Of a stretch of 64,000 nt of DNA, positions 1 to 54,544 are shown in pieces. Source of the stretch: a phage; assembly GCA_024672275.1 (NCBI GenBank), contig GCA_024672275.1_4536.1; one strand, given 5' to 3'. Position 1 is the first letter of the stretch; each line of letters begins with the position of its first letter. The position numbers were made by a program, and so were the translations under genes. The notes under the pieces are model-generated. The model ran no database searches. It was not told the DNA's origin and worked only from the letters and a program-made list of their open reading frames with translations.

Positions 1-34
1 AAAAAAACATCATTCATCACCTGGAGTTAAAATC

Positions 35-232
35 ATGGCAACATTGCACATAGTAGCGAAAGCAGGACAAATCAGCGTCGTGGTAAACGGTTTTACTGAG
101 TTCAGTCATCCCCAGGATGATCATGAAACGGTTTTATCTTTCATTGATTCCCTGTTAGAAATGGGAGTCATTACAGAAGACCAGCACGCTACAAAATGCA
201 AGCGCGTTAATCAAATTGCAGGAATAGAATAA
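35..232 (+). CDS. hypothetical small protein (65 aa)
   Basis: ATG at 35 preceded by purine-rich SD-like tract; same strand as following gene array; no recognisable motif. Confidence 0.45.
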   Translation: MATLHIVAKAGQISVVVNGFTEFSHPQDDHETVLSFIDSLLEMGVITEDQHATKCKRVNQIAGIE

Positions 233-238
233 AAAGTA

Positions 239-296
239 TTGACAACAAACAACAACCTGATAAGATGTATCACGTAGGGCGGCAATGGTGCCGCTC
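239..296 (+). promoter_or_regulatory. sigma70/sigA-type promoter + 5'-proximal GC hairpin cassette
   Basis: TTGACA 239-244, 16-nt spacer, TGn-TAAGAT 261-266, conserved CACGTAGGGCGG box, hairpin GCGGC/GCCGC 277-296 (20-mer TAGGGCGGCAATGGTGCCGC), 23 nt before ATG 320. Confidence 0.7.
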
Positions 297-319
297 ACAA
301 CAGAAGAGAGATTATAATC

Positions 320-592
320 ATGGCATCATATAGCGCAACAATGATCGTAGCTGGCACCACTGGTAAACCTATGAGCGGTGGCGGATCTTTCGCAAATATC
401 AACATTGACGGGCGTTTATCCCTGGACGCAGCGATCACCGTGGCGCGGGAAACATTTAAGAAAGAATGTAAATTCAATAAACAAGATTATCTCGGTTTTG
501 CTATTGAAAAAACCGCGCGCTTTGTTGATTATAAAAGCCCAAAAATGGTTGATACTACACTAAAAGCGCAAGATGTAGCGTTTTTACTTTAA
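320..592 (+). CDS. hypothetical protein (90 aa)
   Basis: ATG 320 directly downstream of promoter-hairpin cassette and purine-rich RBS; ORF track. Confidence 0.6.
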   Translation: MASYSATMIVAGTTGKPMSGGGSFANINIDGRLSLDAAITVARETFKKECKFNKQDYLGFAIEKTARFVDYKSPKMVDTTLKAQDVAFLL

Positions 593-595
593 GGC

Positions 596-651
596 TTGAC
601 ATTAACGAATAATTTGTTTATATGTTACATAAAGCGGGAATAGTTCCCGCT
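596..651 (+). promoter_or_regulatory. sigma70-type promoter + GC hairpin cassette
   Basis: TTGACA 596-601, 17-nt spacer, TATATG 619-624, hairpin AGCGGGAA-TAG-TTCCCGCT 633-651. Confidence 0.65.
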
Positions 652-668
652 ATTTGTAAGGTGGTAGA

Positions 669-926
669 ATGTTTTACATCAAATTAAAAGGTCACGTGAT
701 CGCGTTCAAAGATAACGCTTTTTACAGATTAGCAAAATATGCGTTAATACATCCCCACTATGTTTATATAAGGGGGCGTGATGAAATAAATATCTTTGAT
801 CAAACAACATGCGAAAACATCGAGATCCGCAAGGTTGGCGTACGTGATTATCGTACATCTTTCTACCCTTGCAAGGATTCAGCAAGTCTTTTTAAAGTAT
901 GCCAATTGTTGAAAAAAGGTGGTTAA
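669..926 (+). CDS. hypothetical protein (85 aa)
   Basis: ATG 669 after cassette; RBS GGTGG; ORF track. Confidence 0.6.
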   Translation: MFYIKLKGHVIAFKDNAFYRLAKYALIHPHYVYIRGRDEINIFDQTTCENIEIRKVGVRDYRTSFYPCKDSASLFKVCQLLKKGG

Positions 927-927
927 T

Positions 928-1485
928 ATGGGCCGCGAATATGTGATCCAGTCTTGGGTAAAACATGAAGCAGATGATCCGCGCATCATTCCCAATCATC
1001 TTATCGATGAATCCACGGGATATAGCGGTGAGCAAATAGGTAACAGATTAGCACGTAGTAACGGCAACGTAAAAGCGCGTTATGTGCGCCCTGGTTGGCT
1101 GGCAAATGGTAACGCTGATTTATCCAGTGCGGAAGATGCGAGCGACGGCGCGAAAGATAATCCTTTGTACAAAGTTGATCCGGCTTTTCGTGTCCTGGAT
1201 GAATACCCCAGCAAGATAGCGGCGCTCGATCAGGCCCTGGAAAGTAAGCGCATCACCTGGACCGCTTACAACATGGCAAAAAACGTACTTGATGGTAAAT
1301 TGATTCAAGCTGAAAGAAAATTAGCCAAAATTGCAGCCATAGCCCAGGAGGAAGACGAGGAGACAACGGAAGAGGAAGAGTACGAAGAGATCCCGCCGTT
1401 GTTGTGCGTTGATGCTTTTCCTGATTATCAGCCGACAGAGGAAGAAAAAAGGATCGCACTAGAAAACTTTGAAAATAGTCTTTGA
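928..1485 (+). CDS. hypothetical protein with acidic C-terminal tract (185 aa)
   Basis: Internal ATG 928 with RBS AAAAAGGTGG (track ORF begins at GTG 919); translationally coupled to 669..926. Confidence 0.6.
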   Translation: MGREYVIQSWVKHEADDPRIIPNHLIDESTGYSGEQIGNRLARSNGNVKARYVRPGWLANGNADLSSAEDASDGAKDNPLYKVDPAFRVLDEYPSKIAALDQALESKRITWTAYNMAKNVLDGKLIQAERKLAKIAAIAQEEDEETTEEEEYEEIPPLLCVDAFPDYQPTEEEKRIALENFENSL

Positions 1486-1540
1486 CATATCGCCGCCACT
1501 GGCATAATATTTACCACGTAGGGCGGCAATGGTGCCGCTC
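1482..1540 (+). promoter_or_regulatory. sigma70-type promoter + GC hairpin cassette
   Basis: TTGACA 1482-1487, N17, TAATAT 1505-1510, TTACCACGTAGGGCGG box, exact 20-mer hairpin 1521-1540. Confidence 0.7.
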
Positions 1541-1567
1541 ATAGTGAAATTATGCAAGAGGTTTACA

Positions 1568-1663
1568 ATGATTAATAAAGAAAATAGCTTGACGGTTGGA
1601 ACGATTAACGCTATCATTTTCGCCGTTCCATTTTGGGTTGTAGTAGCGGCTATTATTTTCTAA
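1568..1663 (+). CDS. small hydrophobic peptide (31 aa)
   Basis: ATG 1568 after cassette, RBS AGAGG; predicted single TM helix; below 60-aa ORF-track cutoff. Confidence 0.4.
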   Translation: MINKENSLTVGTINAIIFAVPFWVVVAAIIF

Positions 1664-1672
1664 AAAATATTC

Positions 1673-1733
1673 TTGACAACGTTTTTTAATCTGATAAGAT
1701 GTATCACATAGGGCGGCGGAATACTTCCCCGCC
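1673..1733 (+). promoter_or_regulatory. sigma70-type promoter + GC hairpin cassette
   Basis: TTGACA 1673-1678, N16, TGn-TAAGAT 1695-1700, hairpin GGCGGCGGAA-TAC-TTCCCCGCC 1711-1733. Confidence 0.7.
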
Positions 1734-1754
1734 AAAACAAAAAAGGGTAACACA

Positions 1755-2117
1755 ATGAGCAAGCAAATCAATACTATCATGTTTAATCTGGTATCTTTCC
1801 GCGATGATATGAAAAATTTACCACGTGAAACGGTTGATATTCATGTTTCAGCTTATCGCGCCCTTATTGACATGTTACCGCTAAAACGTGATCAACATGC
1901 CGCTAATATGATGCTTAATGCTATGCTTAAAAAGATGATTCAAACGGATCTCACCCTGGCGTATGAGTATCAAGGGCGCTTATATGCAACTTACAACAAG
2001 GCGGTACCTGGTCTGGGAAGTACCGAAGAGTTGCACGGCTTAAACCTGGATCAAAACACTTGGGATAGTATGCGCCGCGTTATGGTATGGGCTGAAAGCG
2101 GTAAAATTTACGAATAA
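1755..2117 (+). CDS. hypothetical protein (120 aa)
   Basis: ATG 1755 after cassette; ORF track. Confidence 0.6.
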   Translation: MSKQINTIMFNLVSFRDDMKNLPRETVDIHVSAYRALIDMLPLKRDQHAANMMLNAMLKKMIQTDLTLAYEYQGRLYATYNKAVPGLGSTEELHGLNLDQNTWDSMRRVMVWAESGKIYE

Positions 2118-2123
2118 AAACGG

Positions 2124-2183
2124 TTGACACTGTTTAAACTTCTGGTATAGTTTACCACATAGGGCGGGAAGTGGTTTCCCGCC
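2124..2183 (+). promoter_or_regulatory. sigma70-type promoter + GC hairpin cassette
   Basis: TTGACA 2124-2129, N16, TGn-TATAGT 2146-2151, hairpin GGCGGGAA-GTGGT-TTCCCGCC 2162-2183. Confidence 0.7.
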
Positions 2184-2205
2184 AACAATGAAAAAGGTTA
2201 TCATC

Positions 2206-2571
2206 ATGGCTATTAATATTAATGTTTCCTCTTATGCTACCCTGGCTGACACGGCTAAAATTGAATTATCCAGCATTGAGGCGGTGCATATTAGCGCCCG
2301 TCGCTGGTTTCAACAGTCCTACGGTAATACATATTTTTCTTTAATGGTTGACGTTGAGATCGGCGGTAAACTGATCGAGGTGGTTAACGTTCCGTTTCAA
2401 TATGGCTATGGTGATCATTTTGATACCGTCGCCCTGGAAGAATTTAGCAAGGTTGTTAATATGGAAGGTAAAGAGTTTTTACGCGGCGCGTATCTTTCCC
2501 GTTTTTGCCGTGACAATGGGATCACTGTATACAGTCATGCAAGCGATGTTAAACGTAAAAAAGATCTATAA
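2206..2571 (+). CDS. hypothetical protein (121 aa)
   Basis: Internal ATG 2206 with RBS AAAAAGG favoured over track start 2188; N-terminus MA.. like neighbouring genes. Confidence 0.55.
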   Translation: MAININVSSYATLADTAKIELSSIEAVHISARRWFQQSYGNTYFSLMVDVEIGGKLIEVVNVPFQYGYGDHFDTVALEEFSKVVNMEGKEFLRGAYLSRFCRDNGITVYSHASDVKRKKDL

Positions 2572-2577
2572 AAAGCA

Positions 2578-2637
2578 TTGACAACACGAATAAAAAGAGT
2601 AAACTGTATTACATAGAGAGCGGGAACACTTCCCGCC
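2578..2637 (+). promoter_or_regulatory. sigma70-type promoter + GC hairpin cassette
   Basis: TTGACA 2578-2583, N16, TAAACT 2600-2605, hairpin GCGGGAA-CAC-TTCCCGC about 2619-2637. Confidence 0.65.
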
Positions 2638-2660
2638 TCACTGAAAAAGAGAGAAAAATC

Positions 2661-2900
2661 ATGGCTAAATCTAAAATGTACAACGGTCACAAAAACAAAA
2701 CTCATTGGAATGTAAGCCTTTGGATTAATAACGATGAATCGTTATACCGGTTGGCCCAAGATTTTATTAACGCTAATGCTAATCGTAATGATGCGGCGCG
2801 GGATATGATGCTTTTTCTGGAACAAACTGGACAAGATAAAACGCCAGACGGTTTCAAATATAGCACTACTGCGATCCGTGCCGCGATGGTTGGAATGTAA
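2661..2900 (+). CDS. hypothetical protein (79 aa)
   Basis: ATG 2661 after cassette and AGAGAG RBS; ORF track. Confidence 0.6.
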   Translation: MAKSKMYNGHKNKTHWNVSLWINNDESLYRLAQDFINANANRNDAARDMMLFLEQTGQDKTPDGFKYSTTAIRAAMVGM

Positions 2901-2909
2901 TAAAAACAG

Positions 2910-2969
2910 TTGACAACGTTTAAAATTAGTGTAAGATGTATCACATAGGGCGGGAAGTGGTTTCCCGCC
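2910..2969 (+). promoter_or_regulatory. sigma70-type promoter + GC hairpin cassette
   Basis: TTGACA 2910-2915, N16, TAAGAT 2932-2937, hairpin identical to 2162-2183 copy (GGCGGGAAGTGGTTTCCCGCC) 2948-2969. Confidence 0.7.
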
Positions 2970-2990
2970 AAAACAGAGAGATTAAAGATT

Positions 2991-3218
2991 ATGGCTATCA
3001 ATATTGTTCGCGTATCCGGCACCGTTGGCACTTCCCAGGTCATTGCAGTTGTAACAAACAAAAAGATTAATGATGTATGTGAAAGCTTGAATAAGTGGGC
3101 TATTGCTAATTTTGGGGAATATGCAAGCGTTGAGTACATCGAATCCTACCAGGTGCCAACCATCAGCCTAACCGATCTCAACGTTGATCGCCTGTTATGC
3201 CTGGATGAATTAATCTGA
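2991..3218 (+). CDS. hypothetical protein (75 aa)
   Basis: ATG 2991 after cassette; ORF track. Confidence 0.6.
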   Translation: MAINIVRVSGTVGTSQVIAVVTNKKINDVCESLNKWAIANFGEYASVEYIESYQVPTISLTDLNVDRLLCLDELI

Positions 3219-3227
3219 AAAAGATTG

Positions 3228-3285
3228 TTGACACCGGAAAGAAAAAGAGTAAACTGTATTACGTAGGGCGGCAATAGTGCCGCTC
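3228..3285 (+). promoter_or_regulatory. sigma70-type promoter + GC hairpin cassette
   Basis: TTGACA 3228-3233, N16, TAAACT 3250-3255, hairpin GGCGGCAATAGTGCCGC (1 mismatch to 20-mer) 3266-3285. Confidence 0.7.
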
Positions 3286-3308
3286 ACAACAGAAGAGAGA
3301 TTATCACG

Positions 3309-3524
3309 ATGGCTAATATCCGTACACTGTTAAAAAATGCAAGTCAAGTTTTATTTTCAGATGACGAGTATTTCAATAAAGACATTACAGGCGTAAAAAA
3401 TCTTAAAGATGTAAAGGATGTGATAGGTATTCGCGGATCTTTACGTAAAGGTGACTACTACGGCAATAAAGTACAATATAAATTAAATCAGTCTTATGAT
3501 TTTACTTTGACAATTATTTCATAA
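3309..3524 (+). CDS. hypothetical protein (71 aa)
   Basis: ATG 3309 after cassette; ORF track. Confidence 0.6.
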   Translation: MANIRTLLKNASQVLFSDDEYFNKDITGVKNLKDVKDVIGIRGSLRKGDYYGNKVQYKLNQSYDFTLTIIS

Positions 3525-3530
3525 AACCGC

Positions 3531-3592
3531 TTGCAATCTTAATAAAATAAAGTAAACTGTATTACATCAAGGCGGCGGAATGGTCCACCGCC
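3531..3592 (+). promoter_or_regulatory. sigma70-type promoter + GC hairpin cassette
   Basis: TTGCAA 3531-3536, N16, TAAACT 3553-3558, hairpin GGCGGCGGAA-TGG-TCCACCGCC 3571-3592. Confidence 0.6.
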
Positions 3593-3616
3593 TAACAAAG
3601 AGAAGAGGAAAATATC

Positions 3617-3784
3617 ATGATCACTTTCGCTACCCGTGAAGCCGCTCGCAACGTTGCACGTAAAGTTAACGCCGCCAACCTGGGTGCTACTTTTAAAGCC
3701 CCGGTGAAAGATGAATCAGGAAAATGGATCTTCCCTGGTCTGCGTCATGCTGACAAGTTAGGTACTTTAAGCCTTAAAAAATAA
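3617..3784 (+). CDS. hypothetical small protein (55 aa)
   Basis: ATG 3617 after cassette, RBS AGAGGAAAA; below ORF-track size cutoff. Confidence 0.5.
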   Translation: MITFATREAARNVARKVNAANLGATFKAPVKDESGKWIFPGLRHADKLGTLSLKK

Positions 3785-3787
3785 TCG

Positions 3788-3824
3788 TTGACTTTTCGTT
3801 ATAGCGCCTTACAATGGGCGCTAT
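3788..3824 (+). promoter_or_regulatory. sigma70-type promoter with palindrome overlapping -10 (operator-like)
   Basis: TTGACT 3788-3793, N16, TACAAT 3810-3815; perfect inverted repeat ATAGCGCC/GGCGCTAT 3801-3824 straddles the -10 instead of lying downstream. Confidence 0.55.
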
Positions 3825-3858
3825 AGAGAAGAGAAACCACTACTAACAAGGAAACATC

Positions 3859-4080
3859 ATGATCACTTTCGCTATTGTCGCCGTTGTTGCTGGTCAGGTT
3901 TACATAAACGATACATTCACCACAGAAGACAAGGCCGCAGGAGACATAACCGCCGTTTACAATGAGTGCAAGGCAGTAGAAAGGATGTTAGCGCCTTGTA
4001 TGCTAATGAGTGAACGCCAGGACGGGATAACAGTATTTACTAACATTGAAACAGGGTACCAAATGGTAGTAACAAAATAA
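3859..4080 (+). CDS. hypothetical protein (73 aa)
   Basis: ATG 3859; ORF track. Confidence 0.6.
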   Translation: MITFAIVAVVAGQVYINDTFTTEDKAAGDITAVYNECKAVERMLAPCMLMSERQDGITVFTNIETGYQMVVTK

Positions 4081-4083
4081 AGC

Positions 4084-4141
4084 TTGACACGGATTTAATT
4101 TTCAGTAAATTGTTACACGTAGGGCGGGAATAGTTCCCGCT
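4084..4141 (+). promoter_or_regulatory. sigma70-type promoter + GC hairpin cassette
   Basis: TTGACA 4084-4089, N16, TAAATT 4106-4111, GTTACACGTAGGGCGG box, hairpin AGCGGGAA-TAG-TTCCCGCT 4121-4141. Confidence 0.7.
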
Positions 4142-4158
4142 AAAAAGAGAGAAAGACC

Positions 4159-4512
4159 ATGAAAGCACAAAATACAATTAAAGAGTACGTCCTTGCCGCT
4201 ATCGATTTTAATGATTACAGTATTACAACCGAAAAAGAGAAGATCGCGGAATTGATGCGCCGTTTTAATTCCGAGTACTGGTACCCTGATAACCAATCAC
4301 GTTTTAATTATAGTATTGTTAAAGCACTTGCATCATGGTTACAAGGTTTGCCATCAGATATCAATATCGCTTTCGAATATTGGGAAATTGATCGCTTGTT
4401 AACATCCTGGGGATACATTAAAGAGAATAGCAGCGATGATAAAATCCAACGAGAAAGGGAAAATTATTGGCTTTATATTGCAGGCGTGATCCTTGCTTGC
4501 TCTTATGAATGA
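4159..4512 (+). CDS. hypothetical protein (117 aa)
   Basis: ATG 4159 after cassette; ORF track. Confidence 0.6.
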   Translation: MKAQNTIKEYVLAAIDFNDYSITTEKEKIAELMRRFNSEYWYPDNQSRFNYSIVKALASWLQGLPSDINIAFEYWEIDRLLTSWGYIKENSSDDKIQRERENYWLYIAGVILACSYE

Positions 4513-4518
4513 TAAACC

Positions 4519-4572
4519 TTGACAATTTTACAAAACAGTTTAAATTAACAATATAGCGGCAATGGTGCCGCT
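4519..4572 (+). promoter_or_regulatory. sigma70-type promoter + GC hairpin cassette
   Basis: TTGACA 4519-4524, N16, TAAATT 4541-4546, hairpin AGCGGCAATGGTGCCGCT 4555-4572. Confidence 0.65.
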
Positions 4573-4591
4573 CATATGAAGAGGAAACAAA

Positions 4592-4738
4592 ATGAATACA
4601 TCTAATCGCGCAGAAAAAATTCAATCTTCCAAGATCCGCAAAGCCTGGAACGAGGAAGTGATCCGCAAAGGCGACAAGCGCAATAAAACAAAGCGCGGGA
4701 AGAGTGACAAATATAATTGGATGGATTTAGAGGATTAA
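4592..4738 (+). CDS. small basic protein (48 aa, K/R-rich)
   Basis: ATG 4592 after cassette; RBS AGAGGAAA; below ORF-track cutoff. Confidence 0.45.
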   Translation: MNTSNRAEKIQSSKIRKAWNEEVIRKGDKRNKTKRGKSDKYNWMDLED

Positions 4739-4744
4739 CATAAC

Positions 4745-4772
4745 AAGGGCGCACCAAGCGCCCTTTCTTTTT
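4745..4772 (+). terminator. rho-independent terminator
   Basis: Hairpin AGGGCGC-ACCAA-GCGCCCT followed by TTTCTTTTT; identical copy at 10451-10479. Confidence 0.7.
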
Positions 4773-4793
4773 ACATGTAGAGGATAAACAAAA

Positions 4794-4979
4794 ATGACTT
4801 TAAACGAGCTTAAAACAGCCTACAGCGCAACATTAAAAATAGCCGTGCGCTACCGTGACGAATACGGTTTTATTGCGCAGGGCGTGATCCTGGGCTTTTC
4901 TGACGATGGTTTGATCTATGTTGATGCACATCATAATAAGGTAAAACCTGAAAACGTCATTAGCATAAAATATCTTTAA
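4794..4979 (+). CDS. hypothetical protein (61 aa)
   Basis: ATG 4794 with RBS AGAGGA; ORF track. Confidence 0.5.
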   Translation: MTLNELKTAYSATLKIAVRYRDEYGFIAQGVILGFSDDGLIYVDAHHNKVKPENVISIKYL

Positions 4980-4985
4980 AAGTGG

Positions 4986-5045
4986 TTGACACCATAACTG
5001 GACCTGTTAAACTGTATTACATCAGGCGGGGAATAGTTCTCCACC
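4986..5045 (+). promoter_or_regulatory. sigma70-type promoter + GC hairpin cassette
   Basis: TTGACA 4986-4991, N16, TGn-TAAACT 5008-5013, imperfect hairpin GGCGGGGA-ATAGT-TCTCCACC 5025-5045. Confidence 0.6.
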
Positions 5046-5064
5046 ATACAAAAAGGTAAATATT

Positions 5065-5271
5065 ATGATCACCGCAAAACAAGAGAAAATCATTATCGAC
5101 GTTGCAGCCGTTGCCGCTATTGCTATTATTGGATCTTATTATGATACCCGTTTCCCGTCGGCTATGCATGAGGTCGCCGCCGTTGCATCAGTTGGCGTAC
5201 TGTTTTACGTTGGTAAACGCTATTTATCACCAATGATTAACAAGCTGACACCGTGGAAAAATAAAGGTTGA
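5065..5271 (+). CDS. hypothetical membrane protein (68 aa)
   Basis: ATG 5065; hydrophobic segment IIIDVAAVAAIAIIG; ORF track. Confidence 0.55.
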   Translation: MITAKQEKIIIDVAAVAAIAIIGSYYDTRFPSAMHEVAAVASVGVLFYVGKRYLSPMINKLTPWKNKG

Positions 5272-5325
5272 TCCTGTTTTATATTGTGTTATAGTTATCG
5301 TGTAGGGCGGCAATGGTGCCGCGCC
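5268..5325 (+). promoter_or_regulatory. sigma70-type promoter + GC hairpin cassette
   Basis: TTGATC 5268-5273, N16, TATAGT 5290-5295, exact 20-mer hairpin 5305-5322. Confidence 0.6.
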
Positions 5326-5342
5326 CTTTTGAGGATGCAATC

Positions 5343-5627
5343 ATGAGTAAAGCTAACACCGTGCTAATGTTTTCCCTGATTAATGATCCCGCTTACTTGT
5401 CCAACATGACGCAGGACGGTAACACATTAACGGCAACATTCACCAATAAGCTTGACCGGGTGATCATCGTCTCACTGAAAACAGTTAGTAAAGGCTTTTA
5501 CTCGTTAGCTTATCATTGGATCACCGATACCGATGAGACAAGCCAGGACTATAGCGCCCCTTTCCCTGAATCAATGGCACGGGAGATCATCGCCGCCGTT
5601 GTAAATGATGGTTTGTTTACTGCATAA
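5343..5627 (+). CDS. hypothetical protein (94 aa)
   Basis: Internal ATG 5343 with RBS GAGGAT; track start 5313 lies inside the promoter hairpin. Confidence 0.55.
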   Translation: MSKANTVLMFSLINDPAYLSNMTQDGNTLTATFTNKLDRVIIVSLKTVSKGFYSLAYHWITDTDETSQDYSAPFPESMAREIIAAVVNDGLFTA

Positions 5628-5644
5628 AATAATTTAGAAAAAGG

Positions 5645-5701
5645 CTTGCAATCATTTTGAGATAGTGTATATTTAATTCATAGGGCGGCGGGAATAGTTC
5701 C
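5645..5701 (+). promoter_or_regulatory. sigma70-type promoter + GC hairpin cassette
   Basis: TTGCAA 5645-5650, N16, TATATT 5667-5672, hairpin GGGAA-TAG-TTCCC within GGGCGGCGGGAATAGTTCCC 5682-5701. Confidence 0.55.
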
Positions 5702-5725
5702 CAAAGCAAACGAGAGGATTACACG

Positions 5726-5845
5726 ATGAGCAAGTACACAGTAGAATACACGGTAGAAAATCCGGCAGTATCCGAAGGTAAAAAGATGACATTTGCCATC
5801 AGTATAATCGCTTTCGTTGTCACTATCTTATCAATCATCTTATAA
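5726..5845 (+). CDS. small hydrophobic peptide (39 aa)
   Basis: ATG 5726 with RBS GAGAGGA; C-terminal TM helix; below ORF-track cutoff. Confidence 0.45.
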   Translation: MSKYTVEYTVENPAVSEGKKMTFAISIIAFVVTILSIIL

Positions 5846-5855
5846 GGTACATACC

Positions 5856-6017
5856 ATGAAAACAGCAGACATTATCAAAGAGATCGCCCTTGCCGCTGGT
5901 GTTGAAGTCGAGGAAGTGATCGCGCTCAATCTTACAGAAAACGATCTGCGCAACTATGAAGCGGAAAGCGTGAAAGCAAGCGGCGCGGTCCTGGTATATG
6001 ATCCGGCTAACAAGTAA
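5856..6017 (+). CDS. hypothetical small protein (53 aa)
   Basis: Internal ATG 5856 of track ORF 5817..6017; follows stop of previous peptide. Confidence 0.45.
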   Translation: MKTADIIKEIALAAGVEVEEVIALNLTENDLRNYEAESVKASGAVLVYDPANK

Positions 6018-6026
6018 GGGGATAAC

Positions 6027-6137
6027 ATGAATCCGAAAGATATGCAAGCATGGAAAGGGTACGACGATCTAAGCGCCTTGCGCAATAAGTCAAGCCGTAA
6101 CTTTAGACGGTTGGAAGCAAAGAAAAAGAAAAAATAG
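6027..6137 (+). CDS. hypothetical small basic protein (36 aa)
   Basis: ATG 6027 with RBS AAGGGG; ends TAG immediately before next promoter. Confidence 0.4.
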   Translation: MNPKDMQAWKGYDDLSALRNKSSRNFRRLEAKKKKK

Positions 6138-6138
6138 T

Positions 6139-6196
6139 TTGACAAGTCCGCCTAGTCTGATAATATATATCTTGTAGGGCGGCAATGGTGCCGCTC
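6139..6196 (+). promoter_or_regulatory. sigma70-type promoter + GC hairpin cassette
   Basis: TTGACA 6139-6144, N16, TGn-TAATAT 6161-6166, exact 20-mer hairpin 6177-6196. Confidence 0.7.
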
Positions 6197-6215
6197 ACAA
6201 GAAGAGAGAAAAATT

Positions 6216-6500
6216 ATGAAAATCACAAAAAGCCTAACTAATTATGCAGCACGTCGCGGATTATGTTTAACCGTTGAAAACTTAGGGAAAGAAGACTTTT
6301 TGTGTTTTTGGGAGCTTGAAAACGATTGCGAGTGGATGTTTTCCTATTCTATCTGCGAAGATCAAAACGGTTGTTTGTTAACCTGGCGCGGTAATATCTA
6401 TTTACCGGAAGAAATTAAAGAAGAGTTACCAGGTACGATCATGACAGAGAGACAGCTTAAGGAAGTGATCAATTTTGTAGGGCAAAACATTAAAAAATAA
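6216..6500 (+). CDS. hypothetical protein (94 aa)
   Basis: ATG 6216 after cassette; ORF track. Confidence 0.6.
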   Translation: MKITKSLTNYAARRGLCLTVENLGKEDFLCFWELENDCEWMFSYSICEDQNGCLLTWRGNIYLPEEIKEELPGTIMTERQLKEVINFVGQNIKK

Positions 6501-6501
6501 T

Positions 6502-6564
6502 TTGACAGTAGGCAAACAACGTAGTAAAGTTTATTACATAGAGCGGCGGAATGGTCCACCGCTC
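6502..6564 (+). promoter_or_regulatory. sigma70-type promoter + GC hairpin cassette
   Basis: TTGACA 6502-6507, N17, TAAAGT 6525-6530, hairpin GAGCGGCGGAA-TGG-TCCACCGCTC 6541-6564. Confidence 0.65.
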
Positions 6565-6585
6565 ACAACAGAAGAGAAACAAATC

Positions 6586-6756
6586 ATGATCCCGACTATG
6601 TTTTATGTATCGCGCAAAGGTCACAATATTTTTTGGTCTGAAGATTTAAATGAAGCTATGACGTTTGCCCGTGATCGTGTTGCTATCGGTGGCGTTAACA
6701 TCACCGTAACCGATGAAAATGGCATTGAATACTATAACGGCGACGATGAAGAATAA
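6586..6756 (+). CDS. hypothetical small protein (56 aa)
   Basis: Internal ATG 6586 downstream of hairpin and AGAAGAGA RBS; track start 6502 is the TTG inside the -35 box. Confidence 0.55.
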   Translation: MIPTMFYVSRKGHNIFWSEDLNEAMTFARDRVAIGGVNITVTDENGIEYYNGDDEE

Positions 6757-6763
6757 TTAATGA

Positions 6764-6784
6764 GGCGGGGGAGTATTCCCCGCC
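6764..6784 (+). promoter_or_regulatory. GC hairpin of cassette type without recognisable promoter
   Basis: Hairpin GGCGGGGGAG-TAT-TCCCCGCC 20 nt upstream of ATG 6804; no -35/-10 found upstream. Confidence 0.45.
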
Positions 6785-6803
6785 GTCAATAAAGAGGTAA
6801 ATC

Positions 6804-7073
6804 ATGAAAATATCATTGGACGTTGCAATCAAGGCCATCGAGTCCGGTTACATCCTGGTAAAAGATGATAAGGCTAAAATAGTGCATCATGTTAACAAGG
6901 AAACAGGCGAAAGCATGATCACATATAAAGCCGCCTACTTTCTCCAATCAGTAGCAGATCCGCGCGTACAACGCCAGGTTACGGCGACTATTGCTAAAAA
7001 ATTATGTGCTTTACAGGGTGCAAGTTTTAACGAGATCGCCCCGTGTTTTGAGTGGTCAAGCTTGAAAAAATAA
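6804..7073 (+). CDS. hypothetical protein (89 aa)
   Basis: ATG 6804 with RBS AAAGAGG; ORF track. Confidence 0.6.
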   Translation: MKISLDVAIKAIESGYILVKDDKAKIVHHVNKETGESMITYKAAYFLQSVADPRVQRQVTATIAKKLCALQGASFNEIAPCFEWSSLKK

Positions 7074-7074
7074 T

Positions 7075-7136
7075 TTGACAACAATTATAAATCGGGTAGA
7101 ATGTATTTCGTAGGGCGGGGCAATAAGGCAACGCCC
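7075..7136 (+). promoter_or_regulatory. sigma70-type promoter + GC hairpin cassette
   Basis: TTGACA 7075-7080, N16, TAGAAT 7097-7102, hairpin GGGCG..CGCCC 7113-7136. Confidence 0.6.
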
Positions 7137-7154
7137 ATTAATGAGGGTAGAATC

Positions 7155-7259
7155 ATGTTAGAGAAAATTTTCACGGTTGTAATAGTGGGCCTGGCGTTAT
7201 CGGTTGGAGTGGTTGCAACTATGGCTAATATGATCCTATCTTCCCACGGTATCGGTTAA
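7155..7259 (+). CDS. small hydrophobic peptide (34 aa)
   Basis: ATG 7155 with RBS GAGGG; predicted TM helix. Confidence 0.45.
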   Translation: MLEKIFTVVIVGLALSVGVVATMANMILSSHGIG

Positions 7260-7269
7260 GGTGAAACAA

Positions 7270-7431
7270 ATGATCACGAACAAAACAGGCAAAACGGAAT
7301 TTTTACGCGGCTTACAAGTTGGTAAGCCTGAGATCTGGCATTGCACGAAGTCCGCGCATAATGAAATGAAAGATTTTACCGCTACTTTACAACGTGTTAA
7401 AATATCTATCACACAGAAAAAGCCTTGTTAG
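7270..7431 (+). CDS. hypothetical small protein (53 aa)
   Basis: ATG 7270 with RBS AAGGTG; below ORF-track cutoff. Confidence 0.4.
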   Translation: MITNKTGKTEFLRGLQVGKPEIWHCTKSAHNEMKDFTATLQRVKISITQKKPC

Positions 7432-7480
7432 TAGTAGAAAACGAGATCCCGCAAACTATTATTATTGTCGAGCGTACAGC

Positions 7481-7867
7481 ATGAAAACAGAAATCATTAT
7501 TGAAATCATCAACGGCTATAAAGAAGCCTTTATTTTTGCTGAATCAGCAAGGGATCATGAAGGTAATTTTATTGATAACTTAGACGATTATGATTTTTCT
7601 CCTAGCGCGGACGAACGGATCGCCCAGGATGTAACAGCCTTTATTAATGCTAATCTTGCCGCTATCTCTGAGGCAATGAGCGACGGCGCAACAGCCAACC
7701 AGATCGGGAATGATTTACATTTTACCCGTAACGGTCACGGCGTAGGCTTTTGGGATCGCCCTGAGATATACACCACTAACACGGCGAACCGCCTAACCAA
7801 TGCAGCTAAGTTTATGCCGAACGTGTCGGCTTACATTGGTGAAGATAATTTGATTTATATTGAATAA
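7481..7867 (+). CDS. hypothetical protein (128 aa)
   Basis: Internal ATG 7481 of track ORF 7394..7867 (track start is GTG inside previous ORF); start uncertain, weak RBS. Confidence 0.5.
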   Translation: MKTEIIIEIINGYKEAFIFAESARDHEGNFIDNLDDYDFSPSADERIAQDVTAFINANLAAISEAMSDGATANQIGNDLHFTRNGHGVGFWDRPEIYTTNTANRLTNAAKFMPNVSAYIGEDNLIYIE

Positions 7868-7873
7868 AAAGTA

Positions 7874-7931
7874 TTGACACAGATCGCCAGTGTGCTAATA
7901 TTTACCACGTAGGGCGGCAATGGTGCCGCTC
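7874..7931 (+). promoter_or_regulatory. sigma70-type promoter + GC hairpin cassette
   Basis: TTGACA 7874-7879, N16, TGn-TAATAT 7896-7901, TTACCACGTAGGGCGG box, exact 20-mer hairpin 7912-7931. Confidence 0.7.
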
Positions 7932-7950
7932 ACTGTAAAAGGTAAACATT

Positions 7951-8142
7951 ATGAAAACTATCACCTATCTGGAATCGAATAACATGTTTTTTGCGCCCGT
8001 TGATGAAATCATCGAAGCATTAAACAACGAGGAAGGGATCAAAGGTTTATCTTATAGCCAACTTTTAGGAATGGTTGCAGCAAATGTAGAGCTTGCTTAC
8101 TATGTTGAAAATTTTGATGAAGCTGTAATCTTTACAAAATAA
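7951..8142 (+). CDS. hypothetical protein (63 aa)
   Basis: ATG 7951 after cassette; ORF track. Confidence 0.6.
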   Translation: MKTITYLESNNMFFAPVDEIIEALNNEEGIKGLSYSQLLGMVAANVELAYYVENFDEAVIFTK

Positions 8143-8145
8143 TCC

Positions 8146-8202
8146 TTGATCTAATCTCTTAAATAACTTATATTTAATGCGTAGGGCGGCAATGGTGCCG
8201 CC
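8146..8202 (+). promoter_or_regulatory. sigma70-type promoter + GC hairpin cassette
   Basis: TTGATC 8146-8151, N17, TATATT 8169-8174, exact 20-mer hairpin 8183-8202. Confidence 0.6.
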
Positions 8203-8220
8203 GATAATGAGGAAAGTAAA

Positions 8221-8520
8221 ATGGAAACTATCGCTATTGTTACCGTAGAAAAACTGGTTGTTGGTGATGTATTCGCGTTAATGGTGCCTAACAGCAGCAA
8301 GCTGGGCGCTTATGAAGTAATGGATCATAAAAATGAATCATTTGGCGACGGTTGCACAATGGCGGTAAAATCTTTAAAGGATGGAATTATCCGCCAGGCT
8401 AACTGGCACAAAGGGAATCAAGTCGGTTTAATATCAGCTAATTTCTTGCCAGAAGAGCAAACATTAGATCAACTATCAGGCGGTAAGACGTTAGCCGAAC
8501 TACTGGAAACAGCGATCTAA
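8221..8520 (+). CDS. hypothetical protein (99 aa)
   Basis: ATG 8221 with RBS GAGGAAAG; ORF track. Confidence 0.6.
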   Translation: METIAIVTVEKLVVGDVFALMVPNSSKLGAYEVMDHKNESFGDGCTMAVKSLKDGIIRQANWHKGNQVGLISANFLPEEQTLDQLSGGKTLAELLETAI

Positions 8521-8527
8521 TCGACAA

Positions 8528-8545
8528 GGGGGCGGCAACGCCCCC
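8528..8545 (+). promoter_or_regulatory. GC hairpin with GNRA-type loop, no recognisable promoter
   Basis: GGGGGCG-GCAA-CGCCCCC 30 nt upstream of ATG 8575. Confidence 0.4.
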
Positions 8546-8574
8546 ATTAAACGCAATAGAAAGAGGATAGACAC

Positions 8575-8859
8575 ATGAAAAAGATGATCGCAGTAGTTGC
8601 CCTGGTTGTTGGTATTAACGCGCCTGTAATGGCGAAAGAGTTGCCAGAATCCATCACGTTAACCGATATTAACGCAGTGAACCGGATCGGTGTTAATTAT
8701 CGCCTATGCCTTGCCGCTAAAACTTTCCAGGACGGCACAACAGAGTACTACGGATTCGAGGGTATCCGCTGCGGTGAGCTTTCACGCGACCTTAAGGAAG
8801 ATCCAGACCTTGAGGCCATACCGATGACCGTAAACGGTAAAGCCCAGGTAAACCGCTAA
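8575..8859 (+). CDS. secreted/periplasmic small protein (94 aa)
   Basis: N-terminal Sec-type signal peptide MKKMIAVVALVVGINAPVMA; RBS AGAGGA. Confidence 0.6.
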   Translation: MKKMIAVVALVVGINAPVMAKELPESITLTDINAVNRIGVNYRLCLAAKTFQDGTTEYYGFEGIRCGELSRDLKEDPDLEAIPMTVNGKAQVNR

Positions 8860-8882
8860 CCATGAGAAAGGTAATCATCACA

Positions 8883-8996
8883 ATGGGGATCGTAGTAGCA
8901 ACGCTGGCGCTAATCCCCTTCCTGATTAAATATGTGCTAATCAGTGTTGTTCTGGTAGTCAGTGACCTATTGGAAACGGTTGGCACCTGGTTTTAA
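8883..8996 (+). CDS. small hydrophobic peptide (37 aa)
   Basis: ATG 8883 with RBS AGAAAGG; alternative start ATG 8862; one predicted TM helix. Confidence 0.4.
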   Translation: MGIVVATLALIPFLIKYVLISVVLVVSDLLETVGTWF

Positions 8997-9008
8997 GGAG
9001 TAATAAAA

Positions 9009-9200
9009 ATGAATGCAGAACAAGTTAGAAAGGTATTAGCAGCGTTGCGGTATCACAACCATAGCAAGGTAAAGAATGATCCTGACTATGTGGATTCAAG
9101 CCTGGAAGAAGACACATTGCAAGCTATAAGCCATATGCAAAAATTGCTTAAGCGTATGACAGAAAAGAATAGATCTGATTATATAGGTGACGAGATCTAA
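9009..9200 (+). CDS. hypothetical protein (63 aa)
   Basis: ATG 9009 with RBS AAGGAG; ORF track. Confidence 0.55.
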   Translation: MNAEQVRKVLAALRYHNHSKVKNDPDYVDSSLEEDTLQAISHMQKLLKRMTEKNRSDYIGDEI

Positions 9201-9206
9201 AATAGC

Positions 9207-9264
9207 TTGCACAATGTATCGGATAGTGTAAGATGTATCACGTAGGGCGGCAATGGTGCCGCCC
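9207..9264 (+). promoter_or_regulatory. sigma70-type promoter + GC hairpin cassette
   Basis: TTGCAC 9207-9212, N16, TAAGAT 9229-9234, exact 20-mer hairpin 9245-9264. Confidence 0.65.
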
Positions 9265-9284
9265 ACTGAAAAAGGTAAATCATC

Positions 9285-9473
9285 ATGGCAATCGTAAAAG
9301 CAAAAGATCTCAAGGTCGGTATGGAACTGGACACGGGCGCGATGGTAGTGACCGTTATTATCATCGATGCGGATCTCGTAGAGCTTGAATTACAGGTTTA
9401 TGATCCTGATTGCGGGGAGGTTGACTTTTTATCTTTCCAGGAGAACGCCGAGGAAACGTATAACATCAACTAA
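9285..9473 (+). CDS. hypothetical protein (62 aa)
   Basis: ATG 9285 after cassette; ORF track. Confidence 0.6.
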   Translation: MAIVKAKDLKVGMELDTGAMVVTVIIIDADLVELELQVYDPDCGEVDFLSFQENAEETYNIN

Positions 9474-9492
9474 AACACTGATAAAAAACAAG

Positions 9493-9521
9493 GTTGACGA
9501 AAGTCAGCCTTTTTGTTATGC
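9493..9521 (+). promoter_or_regulatory. putative sigma70-type promoter followed by long structured leader
   Basis: TTGACG 9493-9498, N17, TATGCT 9516-9521; about 200-nt leader with GC-rich element GGGCGGCACTGGCAACGGGGGAGG before ATG 9729. Confidence 0.35.
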
Positions 9522-9728
9522 TTATTGAACGGGCGGCACTGGCAACGGGGGAGGTAATCACCGGAAGACCCCGCTATATATTGATAGCTAACATCTATCA
9601 AACAACAAAACATCAAAGAGATAAACTATCAAATCTTTACAATTCTACCTATTGACCAATAAATCACAACAGTTTAATATTGTTTTTAGAGGTTAAAATA
9701 TTCCCCAAACGAAAACAGGAAAAAGAAA

Positions 9729-9965
9729 ATGAAAGAAGTCATGATCCTCAAAAAATCACCTATTTTACGTGGCGGTTTTATCGCTTACTCTGATGATTTG
9801 TTAATTGCAACAGTTGCAAAAATACTAAAATCAGAAGATGACAGTAAAAACGGCGTTTATCGTATCTGTTTCACCCGTGGAAAATTACAAGGTAAGATCG
9901 CTTATGCCTTTGATTTACAAGATGTAAACGATAAAATATGCGCTGTTATTGATTATGCAAAATAG
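9729..9965 (+). CDS. hypothetical protein (78 aa)
   Basis: ATG 9729 with RBS ACAGGAAAAAG; ORF track. Confidence 0.55.
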   Translation: MKEVMILKKSPILRGGFIAYSDDLLIATVAKILKSEDDSKNGVYRICFTRGKLQGKIAYAFDLQDVNDKICAVIDYAK

Positions 9966-9977
9966 TTAATTTTCTTA

Positions 9978-10020
9978 TTGACACCGGATCACGCTTGCAT
10001 TATTATTTATCACGTAGGGC
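9978..10020 (+). promoter_or_regulatory. sigma70-type promoter with conserved box but no hairpin
   Basis: TTGACA 9978-9983, N17, TATTAT 10001-10006, conserved TTATCACGTAGGGC box retained but second hairpin arm absent. Confidence 0.6.
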
Positions 10021-10052
10021 AAATCATTTTAAACGGTAAACGAGGAATCACC

Positions 10053-10436
10053 ATGAGCAATATCATCAACCTGGCAGCGACTGTAAACGGTAAAGACTTT
10101 AACGGCGCTGTAGACCGTGATCCTATGTGGTGCTTATCAGTGTTTAAAGGCGACCTGGTTGAAGTTAGAACAACCGAAGGTTATAGCGACGATTATAAAT
10201 GCGAGATCCATTTACATAACTGGTACACGGGTAAAACTTATGCGCTGAATCACGCGTTTATCGGAAAAATCGAATATCGTGAGATGATCGACGAAGAAAC
10301 GGGGCAAGATTTTAGCGAAAACGTTTATATTCGTTCAGAAACATTGGCCGAACGTTTGATCGAGAAAATGAAAGCAAAAAATAAAATTAATTTATCTCAT
10401 TGGATTGATATAACAAACGATCCAGCTTATCAATAA
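10053..10436 (+). CDS. hypothetical protein (127 aa)
   Basis: Internal ATG 10053 with RBS ACGAGG; track start 9978 is the TTG of the -35 box. Confidence 0.6.
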   Translation: MSNIINLAATVNGKDFNGAVDRDPMWCLSVFKGDLVEVRTTEGYSDDYKCEIHLHNWYTGKTYALNHAFIGKIEYREMIDEETGQDFSENVYIRSETLAERLIEKMKAKNKINLSHWIDITNDPAYQ

Positions 10437-10450
10437 ATAACATTTCATAC

Positions 10451-10479
10451 CAGGGCGCACCAAGCGCCCTTTCTTTTTG
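10451..10479 (+). terminator. rho-independent terminator
   Basis: AGGGCGC-ACCAA-GCGCCCT + TTTCTTTTT; identical to 4745-4772; closes the + strand early-like array. Confidence 0.7.
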
Positions 10480-44059: not shown

Positions 44060-44068
44060 TTTCTCTCC

Positions 44069-44395
44069 TTACCAGACATGTTGAGAAATAATAGTTTCCG
44101 TTTTAATGTTATATTTTTCAAGTAGCTCTACATAGGCTTCTTTTGCATTCTCATTTACTTGCTCAAGATCTACAGCTACGCTTCCTTCTCCGCCTTCTAA
44201 ATAAATACCATATATGCAATAAGACTCATCAGCATCGTAGAAAGGAGAGATGCGACTTAAGTCAAGACCTTCTTGTAAGAACCAGTTAAAATCTCCATCA
44301 AATTCTTCTTCAATTCTAGGATCTTCTCCTACAACCTCTTCCCACTTATTAAAAGGTGCACCCTGTAACATACGCCATTCGATATCAATACCCAT
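44069..44395 (-). CDS. hypothetical acidic protein (108 aa)
   Basis: RBS AGGAGGAG + ATG; ORF track. Confidence 0.55.
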   Translation of the reverse strand: MGIDIEWRMLQGAPFNKWEEVVGEDPRIEEEFDGDFNWFLQEGLDLSRISPFYDADESYCIYGIYLEGGEGSVAVDLEQVNENAKEAYVELLEKYNIKTETIISQHVW

Positions 44396-54512: not shown

Positions 54513-54544
54513 TAATATCATAACTAATCCCGCAAGTCAAGAAC

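Follow-up and report, generated by a model that had tools for sequence, protein, structure and literature searches.

The first 10 kb of a 64,000-nucleotide stretch of phage DNA (contig GCA_024672275.1_4536.1 of NCBI GenBank assembly GCA_024672275.1; the whole stretch is called the window below) carry an array of small genes served by repeated expression cassettes, in which a promoter, a short conserved box and a GC hairpin precede the start codon. The first 10.5 kb of the window are 94–98% identical to phAPEC8-like myoviruses (Phapecoctavirus, Stephanstirmvirinae; about 150 kb), and positions 2–9007 are collinear with phage anhysbys at 98% identity. The array region contains about 34 small open reading frames (ORFs), all in the same orientation; its gene content varies among relatives, and it spans the arbitrary start point of the phAPEC8 GenBank record (JX561091).

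Cataloguing of the cassettes, anchored on the promoter hexamers, gives 20 full cassettes (promoter, box and hairpin), all on the + strand, at positions 239–9284. Each begins with an A-tract, after which come a near-consensus sigma-70 promoter and the box YAC-R-TAGGG; a GC hairpin is next, then a purine-rich leader that is open and holds a Shine-Dalgarno (SD) sequence, and finally the ATG. The stop codon of the upstream gene is contained in the AT-rich tract of the cassette. Four partial elements, i.e., E10 (3788), E22 (9978) and two hairpin-only modules (6768–6797 and 8526–8548), bring the total to 24 elements, which bears out the array of about 24 cassettes in the first 10 kb that had been proposed in a preliminary description of this DNA. 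There are 22 promoters, which score 9–11 of 12 against the hexamer consensus, with TTGACA-like -35 and TAnnnT -10 hexamers. Their spacers are 16 nt long in 16 of 22 cases and 17 nt in the other six, exactly as had been described, and a TG extension is present in seven of the 22. The further claim that nearly every small gene has its own promoter is somewhat overstated: about 12 of the 34 ORFs lack one of their own and several cassettes drive two or three genes. Downstream of the -10 hexamer there is a discriminator such as GTATCAC, then R-TAGGG, then the GC hairpin, whose stem starts 9.25 ± 1.8 nt past the hexamer (5–11 nt in 20 of 21 copies). The hairpins are 16–28 nt long, with stems of 7–12 pairs and a mean folding free energy of -14.1 kcal/mol (20 hairpins), and the distance from the end of the stem to the ATG is 19 ± 3.7 nt (range 8–27). 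The exact 20-mer TAGGGCGGCAATGGTGCCGC occurs seven times between 275 and 9262, always on the + strand, against a chance expectation of 0, so that the seven copies counted earlier are confirmed; the sequence TAGGGCGG has 14 exact copies, likewise all on the + strand, within 275–9250. The elements and two intrinsic terminators are as follows (z, folding of the leader compared with dinucleotide shuffles).

E01, 239..319, + strand: promoter TTGACA-16-TAAGAT, TG-extended; box CACGTAGGGCGG; hairpin GGGCGGCA/ATGG/TGCCGCTC; ATG at 320; z -4.1; covariance-model score 56 bits.
E02, 596..668, + strand: promoter TTGACA-17-TATATG; degenerate box ACATAAAG; hairpin AGCGGGAA/TAG/TTCCCGCT; drives ORFs 669 and 928; z -2.75.
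E03, 1482..1567, + strand: exact 20-mer; drives a hydrophobic 31-aa ORF, 1568–1663.
E04, 1673..1754, + strand: box CACATAGGGCGG; hairpin GGCGG(C)GGAA/TAC/TTCCCCGCC with a bulged C.
E05, 2124..2205, + strand: promoter TTGACA-16-TATAGT; hairpin GGCGGGAAG/TGG/TTTCCCGCC; extra gene cassette at this joint in relatives.
E06, 2578..2660, + strand: box ACATAGAGAG; hairpin GAG.GCGGGAA/CAC/TTCCCGCCTC; z -4.5.
E07, 2910..2990, + strand: hairpin identical to that of E05.
E08, 3228..3308, + strand: mosaic in which a promoter of the E06 type is joined to a hairpin (loop ATAG) and leader of the E01 type.
E09, 3531..3616, + strand: promoter TTGCAA-16-TAAACT; box ACATCAAGG; hairpin with a CxA internal mismatch.
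E10, 3788..3858, + strand: 9-bp hairpin TATAGCGCC/..TACAAT../GGCGCTATA straddling the -10; box-like TATAGAG; no leader hairpin; indel joint in relatives.
E11, 4084..4158, + strand: box CACGTAGGGCGG; hairpin GGCGGGAA/TAG/TTCCCGCT.
E12, 4519..4591, + strand: truncated box ATATAGCGG; hairpin AGCGGCA/ATGG/TGCCGCT; drives a T7 gp1.1-like ORF.
E13, 4986..5064, + strand: box ACATCAGG; hairpin GG.GGGGAA/TAG/TTCTCC.CC.
E14, 5268..5342, + strand: weak -35 TTGATC; exact 20-mer; z -0.9.
E15, 5646..5725, + strand: promoter TTGCAA-16-TATATT; box kept; degraded hairpin with the 3' arm lost; drives three ORFs; z -0.7.
E16, 6139..6215, + strand: exact 20-mer; helix extendable to 12 pairs; z -5.0.
E17, 6502..6585, + strand: box ACATAGAGCGG; hairpin with a CxA mismatch; z -5.2.
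H1, hairpin-only module, 6768..6797, + strand: GAGGCGGGGGAG/TAT/TCCCCGCCGTC; no promoter; left edge of ORF 6804–7073, which is missing from most relatives.
E18, 7075..7154, + strand: promoter TTGACA-16-TAGAAT; box; hairpin GGGCG..GC/AATAAG/GC..CGCCC; two separate places in phage FV3 match its promoter part and its box-to-ORF part, respectively.
E19, 7874..7950, + strand: exact 20-mer; left-hand partner in the recombination by which relatives lack ORF 7951–8142.
E20, 8146..8220, + strand: weak -35 TTGATC; exact 20-mer; right-hand partner of E19 in the loss of ORF 7951–8142.
H2, hairpin-only module, 8526..8548, + strand: GGGGGCG/GCAA/CGCCCCC; no promoter; in all relatives an extra gene is inserted, flanked by two such hairpins.
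E21, 9207..9284, + strand: promoter TTGCAC-16-TAAGAT; exact 20-mer.
E22, 9978..10052, + strand: promoter TTGACA-17-TATTAT; box CACGTAGGGC; no hairpin.
Intrinsic terminator, 4745..4765, + strand: hairpin and T-run; 97% identical twin at 10452.
Intrinsic terminator, 10452..10470, + strand: hairpin and T-run; closes the array.

In E10 the loop of the hairpin holds the -10 hexamer TACAAT, an arrangement unlike that of the other 20 copies; extrusion of this hairpin would occlude the promoter.

The density of promoters followed by a hairpin of -9 kcal/mol or better is 1.43 per kb in the array, all on the + strand, compared with about 0.1 per kb elsewhere, i.e., in the remaining 53.5 kb of the window and in anhysbys beyond the window (about 85 kb). 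With ten copies as its basis, a covariance model has 15 matches in the window; they all lie on the + strand, from 267 to 9266, and outside the array the model has no match in either the window or the relative's genome. Anhysbys has one extra family member, which precedes a TerC-like gene on the other strand. Rfam gave no match at E ≤ 1 for window positions 1–12000.

The box has about as much information as the promoter hexamers. Over the 20 paralogous cassettes it holds 1.0–1.6 bits per position, similar to the -35 and -10 hexamers, whereas the promoter spacer holds 0.1–0.4 bits; the A-tract at -45 to -39 has about 1 bit per position. Because the box matches the hexamers while the spacer is nearly random, the box is under a constraint of its own, rather than being a mere by-product of recent duplication. 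In statistics covering 52 distinct copies from the window and its relatives, the variable position of the box, which sits 8 nt past the -10 hexamer, is a purine in 50 of 50 cases (G in 29, A in 21), the base before it is a pyrimidine in 46 of 47, and the T and A that follow are invariant. A pyrimidine at -1 and a purine at +1, about 8 nt past the -10 hexamer, is the usual context of a transcription start site in E. coli. Thus, the conserved purine is taken as the likely, predicted start site (+1). As a sigma-70-dependent pause element, TAGGGC would match the -10-like hexamer only in its T and A, the final T being absent.

Box and hairpin are separable. The box is found without a leader hairpin in E22 and E10, and the two hairpins H1 and H2 have neither box nor promoter. 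CA(C/T)ATAG(G/A) is present, equally far from the -10 hexamer, at about nine strong promoters of SSBI34, a Salmonella phage of the Vequintavirinae, and a hairpin follows only three of these. Therefore, the box can be read as the start-site and initial-transcribed part of the promoter, and the hairpin as a separate element of the leader; the 5' arm of the hairpin overlaps the G-run of the box.

The leaders, from the predicted +1 to the ATG, have a bias towards structure: 18 of 20 fold better than dinucleotide shuffles at z ≤ -2 (z from -2.1 to -5.2). In all leaders the hairpin is the 5'-proximal element and the SD/ATG region is unpaired, so the hairpin lies close to the predicted 5' end of the transcript, where the preliminary description had placed it. 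In copies that start with G, pairing of GU...AC lengthens the helix to nucleotide 1, with A3 bulged. As stem lengths differ, a plain MAFFT alignment was structurally inconsistent, and a structural alignment guided by the covariance model was used instead, in which 94.6% of cells are paired. Its covariation score and number of double changes were reached by none of 500 shuffles, in an alignment that is itself fitted to the model. The changes in stem sequence that had been said to keep complementarity do so, in that the differing stems still pair, but one of the hairpins cited for this (GGGGGCG/CGCCCCC, at 8527) is the one of H2, without a promoter. Unrelated stems occupy the same position in FV3, SSBI34 and slurp01 (GGGCGAC/GTCGCCC, GGGGCAA/TTGCCCC, GGGGAG/CTCCCC and GGGGAGAA/TTCTCCCC), and these are stronger support for structure than the covariation.

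The cassette hairpins have A-rich tails without a U-tract, and none was flagged on the + strand in a terminator scan, whereas canonical hairpins with a T-run were flagged at 4745, 9490 and 10452. The absence of U-tracts argues that the cassette hairpins are not terminators, in agreement with the preliminary description. There is almost no canonical terminator between cassettes. The terminators at 4743–4772 and 10449–10478 are contained in 30-mers that are 97% identical (ACMAGGGCGCACCAAGCGCCCTTTCTTTTT), so that terminators are also repeated modules here; the phAPEC8 GenBank record begins at the terminator of 4743–4772. At the end of the array there is a 250-nt non-coding gap (9480–9728), in which a terminator overlaps a promoter-like site (9490–9522) and a second promoter-like site is present at 9652. 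Parts of this gap (GGGCGGCAC(C)TGGC.ACGGGGG...) are also present in FV3, and SSBI34 has 27 nt of it. When 9480–9728 was checked as a small RNA, there was no significant fold (z -0.6) and no Rfam match.

Collinearity of the array with six relatives is broken at 14 distinct junctions, and 20 of the 28 junction ends lie in cassettes, which make up 23% of the sequence (p = 7e-8). Several joints can be followed to the base. ORF 7951–8142 is absent from phages P3322 and ECO340P2, which have in its place a chimeric cassette consisting of the E19 promoter, a shared 21-mer (GTAGGGCGGCAATGGTGCCGC) and the E20 leader; this is the product expected of a crossover between the copies at 7910 and 8182. At orthologous promoters of phages that are 95–98% identical, the tops of the hairpins have been swapped (GCGG-CAATGGTG-CCGC as opposed to GCGG-GAAGTGGTTTC-CCGC) within identical flanks. 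Within the window, cassettes are mosaics of sub-modules, E08 being an example. The rV5-like phage FV3 belongs to another subfamily; there, identity to the window is 93% for the E18-type promoter as far as the box, and a separate segment, starting exactly at TAGGGCGG, matches at 96% over 187 nt. Between these two segments lies FV3 ORF161, with a direct copy of the box on either side; all genes there except ORF161 and ORF162 are annotated as shared with rV5. Joints of this kind are clear evidence, at the level of sequence, that the repeats act as recombination joints for gene gain and loss, both within and between phage lineages.

The homology of the cassettes extends into some of the genes: ORFs 3617 and 3859 share their first 16 nt (ATGATCACTTTCGCTA) and ORF 5065 shares the first nine (ATGATCACC), and further ORFs listed as starting with ATGGCTA are 2206, 2661, 2991 and 3309. 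Recombination into N-termini, paralogy, or selection on the start region are alternative explanations for homology that reaches the first codons.

Searches of phage genomes, as had been suggested, found the design in phAPEC8-like phages, in the Vequintavirinae (FV3 and SSBI34) and in slurp01 (Asteriusvirus), a jumbo phage of 348 kb, within its array of small genes. The promoters in slurp01 are perfect (TTGACA-16-TATAAT), and downstream of them come ...TTTACAT(C/A)RRG, then a GC hairpin whose apex is A/U-rich, then a leader rich in purines; one copy is nearly exactly of the phAPEC8 type. This occurrence of one design in three coliphage lineages, the recombination joints and the separability of box and hairpin are points that are absent from the preliminary description.

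The array is probably best understood, with some reservation, as a set of composite early-expression cassettes of a phAPEC8-like phage, which also serve as recombination joints. Unmodified host RNA polymerase would read the near-consensus sigma-70 promoter below the UP-like A-tract, and would most likely start at the conserved purine 8 nt past the -10 hexamer, in the context Y-1 R+1 U+2 A+3. The nascent RNA would fold almost immediately, with the GC hairpin extending from about +1/+5 to +25 and the purine-rich leader, SD and ATG left unpaired. The box would be the start-site and initial-transcribed region of the promoter, and the hairpin would shape the 5' end of the mRNA, limiting the access of RppH and RNase E. 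As there are almost no terminators between cassettes, the hairpin may equally act as an insulator of the downstream ribosome-binding site from upstream read-through RNA. Finally, the near-identical direct copies, about 20 in number, act as joints at which single-gene cassettes are deleted, inserted, re-paired and exchanged, even between phage subfamilies. The role in recombination is best seen as a consequence of having about 20 direct repeats, and it is one that matters for evolution.

RppH and RNase E need two or more nucleotides to be unpaired at the 5' end and favour at least three; a 5'-terminal stem-loop blocks RppH, which also disfavours a pyrimidine at nucleotide 2 (PMC8833179). The predicted leaders start with R-U-A-G, with an invariant U at +2, and have 0–4 unpaired 5' nucleotides, depending on the copy and on the true start. 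Thus, protection of the mRNA by the hairpin from decay that depends on the 5' end is plausible, and would be borderline for many copies.

Several observations weigh against parts of this interpretation. A start at the conserved purine leaves 3–4 unpaired nucleotides in most copies, which RppH and RNase E tolerate, so that protection may be weak; this start is a predicted one, as no start-site, transcriptome or half-life data for the phage group were found in the searchable literature. A purely structural stabiliser does not explain the sequence conservation of the box. The fold and covariation analysis over all copies, which had been named as a check, supports structure through its shuffles, but the lower stem GCGG/CCGC is invariant and the covariation is mainly that of one C:G↔G:C pair, over 11 distinct sequences; differences in stem from one paralogue to another may have arisen by block conversion. 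A DNA palindrome yields the same signal, and comparison of the folding of the plus strand with that of its reverse complement (G:U compared with C:A) did not separate RNA structure from palindrome; in this comparison, the way in which hairpins were picked favoured the + strand, and CxA mismatches of the E09/E13/E17 type favour the other strand. Lastly, the box/hairpin core is not enriched for junctions compared with an intergenic-only null (7 of 26, p = 0.37). Because of this, the claim of recombination rests on the individual joints resolved to the base.

A different explanation is that box and hairpin together form a specific RNA site or DNA operator, from +1 to +25, through which a phage or host factor controls the whole early array, by shut-off, cleavage, translation or antitermination. 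The information in the box, which equals that of the -35 and -10 hexamers, and the invariant lower stem exceed what a stabilising hairpin needs, a palindrome at +1 is in the classic position of an operator, the element is confined to one co-oriented gene array, and a Salmonella phage from a different subfamily has 27 nt of it unchanged. Nevertheless, we regard this explanation as unlikely: the upper stems, the stem length and the loops (ATGG, TAG, CAC, TAC, GTGGT, AATAAG, ACAA and others) vary freely, which is ill-suited to one dimer or loop-reading protein, and a loop-reading protein is disfavoured further because loop sequences vary widely across phages. In addition, boxes are found without hairpins and hairpins without boxes, and the scan of array proteins yielded no candidate for an RNA-binding or regulator domain. 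An antitermination site, of the lambda nut or rrn boxA–boxB kind, had been offered as an option in the preliminary description and is rejected here: boxA-like matches are at the chance level (94 found, 94.8 expected), none is tied to a cassette, and there is the lack of any Rfam match at E ≤ 1.

The hairpins might instead work as in the classical PeSL (promoter-early stem-loop) cassettes of T4-like phages and terminate or attenuate transcription that comes in from the upstream cassette; each gene would then be expressed mainly from its own promoter. The stem-loops of PeSLs fall into five classes of position, either upstream of the promoter, within it or overlapping it, and behave like terminators (PMC2839356, PMC4122927); even those without obvious T-runs cut downstream lacZ expression as strongly as rrnB T1 (PMC2839356). 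E10 has its hairpin in the classical PeSL position across the -10 hexamer, and most cassettes are not separated by a canonical terminator, so that read-through needs to be handled in some way. Yet a hairpin downstream of its own promoter would attenuate its own transcript just as much, the tails are A-rich in a phage which ends its units with a canonical hairpin and T-run, and the position is fixed at 9.3 ± 1.8 nt past the -10 hexamer, as opposed to the five positions of PeSL stem-loops. Attenuation is therefore a quite improbable main function.

If the repeats were primarily a recombination system, such as an integron-like or selfish mobile cassette boundary, any role in expression would be incidental. 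The joints at base level, including those across subfamilies, the mosaic cassettes with their swapped hairpin tops and the presence of the design in three unrelated phage lineages all speak for such a system. We consider it very improbable, in view of the following: each cassette has its own promoter, unlike integron cassettes; hairpins of 16–28 nt lack attC architecture; junctions are no more frequent in the core than in other intergenic sequence; and the fixed register to the -10 hexamer, together with a ribosome-binding site that is always open, argues for selection on expression. There is no integrase or recombinase gene next to the array, and no integrase or recombinase is named in the relative's annotation among the two-thirds of the genome listed. 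The integron reading in particular is rejected, since no integrase lies beside the array and the cassettes carry their own promoters.

To our knowledge, the phage group encodes no RNA polymerase of its own. The phAPEC8 GenBank record, in which GTAGGGCGGCAATGGTGCCG and GGGCGGCGGGAATAGTTCCC are tagged 'putative promoter determined with PHIRE', treats the 20-mer as a promoter specific to the phage. This is scarcely credible, as PHIRE merely reports repeated 20-mers, the motif is a GC-rich palindrome 15–25 nt from the ATG and directly downstream of a complete sigma-70 promoter, and rV5 has host-type promoters throughout its genome and may leave the host polymerase unmodified (PMC3606486, which lists promoters and terminators only).

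A broader idea, which is speculative and for which we would not give much more than an outside chance, is that box and hairpin are a dedicated cis-signal common to the phAPEC8-like, rV5-like and 121Q/PBECO4-like jumbo lineages, read by a common host or phage factor either as a mark of the RNA 5' end or as a structure-specific target of recombination. If this were true, the cassettes would be a horizontally mobile, 'plug-and-play' system for expression and gene exchange, which can be seen as analogous to an integron without an integrase.

All 20 array proteins that were scanned belong to PHROGs of unknown function, and the only Pfam matches among the array proteins scanned were DUF7249 (ORF 2661–2900) and T7 gp1.1; the latter is the 48-aa ORF 4592–4738, which matches Phage_1_1 (T7 early protein 1.1) with E 5e-13. 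Several cassettes have hydrophobic products of 31–44 aa (1568–1663, 5726–5845, 7155–7259 and 8862–8996), which are likely single-pass membrane peptides; the ORF of the peptide at 7155–7259 is about 96% identical in DNA to the rV5-like FV3. The label 'early, accessory' for the array genes fits their promoters and their variability, but the resemblance to a host-takeover or anti-defence array that had been suggested in the preliminary description gains no direct support from these proteins.

Directly upstream of the window start and ahead of the array, anhysbys has a non-coding stretch of 1.3 kb (42922–44268), with AT-rich iterated motifs (AAAGTTGAAAACCAAAATTTAAAGTTTA...) and one annotated repeat, which may be an origin or a terminal region. 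The genes beside the array, upstream of this stretch, are those for NADAR, a CapR-domain protein and an AAA ATPase. The records of 'Campylobacter phages' B15, C3 and A140 match the coliphage array, with up to 96–97% identity over 9 kb, as do one Serratia and one Acinetobacter phage record; the host labels of these records look doubtful.

Hairpins of unrelated sequence follow strong promoters elsewhere in the window, on the - strand, with -35 hexamers starting at about 49055, 54540 and 31012. The hairpin at about 49055 (TGGGAGGA..TCCTCCCA) is 12 nt past the -10 hexamer, and those at 54540 and 31012 have a T-run, i.e., terminator and promoter overlap in true PeSL style. In the tRNA cluster of anhysbys (110089–110135), a consensus promoter is followed by ...GATGTAGGGCGT, leading directly into tRNA-Gly, and its likeness to the box may be fortuitous, owing to the 5' end of the tRNA. 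Two candidates for membership of the family were set aside. Three related IMG/VR contigs of high GC content (36–61 kb, 55–58% GC) have the exact 20-mer once each, directly after a stop codon, and have no match among phage records; they are regarded as unrelated, and the 20-mer in them is taken as a coincidental or independent hairpin, the 20-mer in IMG/VR being otherwise on phAPEC8-like contigs. The Klebsiella T5-like phage Torridgeon has similarity in the promoter only, without a hairpin.

Early accessory genes of a large, therapeutically used group of E. coli, Salmonella and Klebsiella myoviruses have a defined signature, i.e., a start-site box followed by a leader hairpin. The annotation 'PHIRE promoter' in databases is corrected, a label which may have been copied into related records. 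Evidence, at the level of single bases, for exchange between subfamilies helps to explain the turnover of the ORFan repertoire. Furthermore, about 20 natural variants, with one promoter frame and differing stems and 5' overhangs, constitute an allelic series for mRNA decay, insulation and translation in E. coli, and the cassettes are a source of compact, strong expression parts.

No paper on the box/hairpin architecture was found in the searchable literature. The repeat itself had already been noticed in 2012, in the phAPEC8 record, but under another name: the same 20-mer at the same loci is called a promoter there and is, by its sequence context, a leader hairpin, while the sigma-70 part is tagged separately as 'host dependent promoter (MEME)'. 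With stabilising stem-loops of E. coli mRNAs, of the ompA 5' untranslated region type, the cassettes have in common a stable hairpin near the predicted 5' end, an unstructured leader and a variable stem sequence; they differ in having a conserved lower stem and box, which a pure stabiliser does not need, and in the 3–4 unpaired nucleotides of many copies at the predicted start. Integron/attC arrays likewise line up single-gene cassettes in one orientation, with repeated imperfect palindromes as the boundaries where cassettes are gained and lost, but the array described here has no integrase found beside it, has promoters of its own, and has hairpins of 16–28 nt without attC architecture, compared with 57–141 nt for attC.

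The preliminary description could match the arrangement to no described element, which does not hold: apart from the tag in phAPEC8, a close analogue is found in the PeSL cassettes of the T4-like phages RB49/phi1, PST/T4 and nt-1/KVP40 (Arbiol et al. 2010, PMC2839356; Comeau et al. 2014, PMC4122927). These have an AT-rich tract in which the stop codon of the preceding gene lies, together with a consensus sigma-70 promoter and a GC stem-loop, then an SD sequence and an ATG; they cluster in hyperplastic ORFan regions and mediate deletions, insertions and the formation of mini-circles (PMC2839356, PMC4122927). The array in the window has the same parts, with a near-consensus promoter and a stable GC stem-loop, and is likewise clustered in a variable region rich in small ORFans, where the indels and replacements that set close relatives apart have the elements as their boundaries, and junctions have chimeric elements. 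The differences are that the stem-loop has one fixed position in the leader, lacks the features of a terminator and comes after a conserved start-site box, only E10 having the classical arrangement across the -10 hexamer; that the phage lineages are others (Stephanstirmvirinae, Vequintavirinae and Asteriusvirus); and that mini-circles are known for PeSLs. Thus, PeSLs are the closest described system, of which the array, as far as its sequence can tell, is a variant rather than a strict member, and the idea that repeated promoter cassettes drive modular gene shuffling is thereby extended beyond the T4-like phages.

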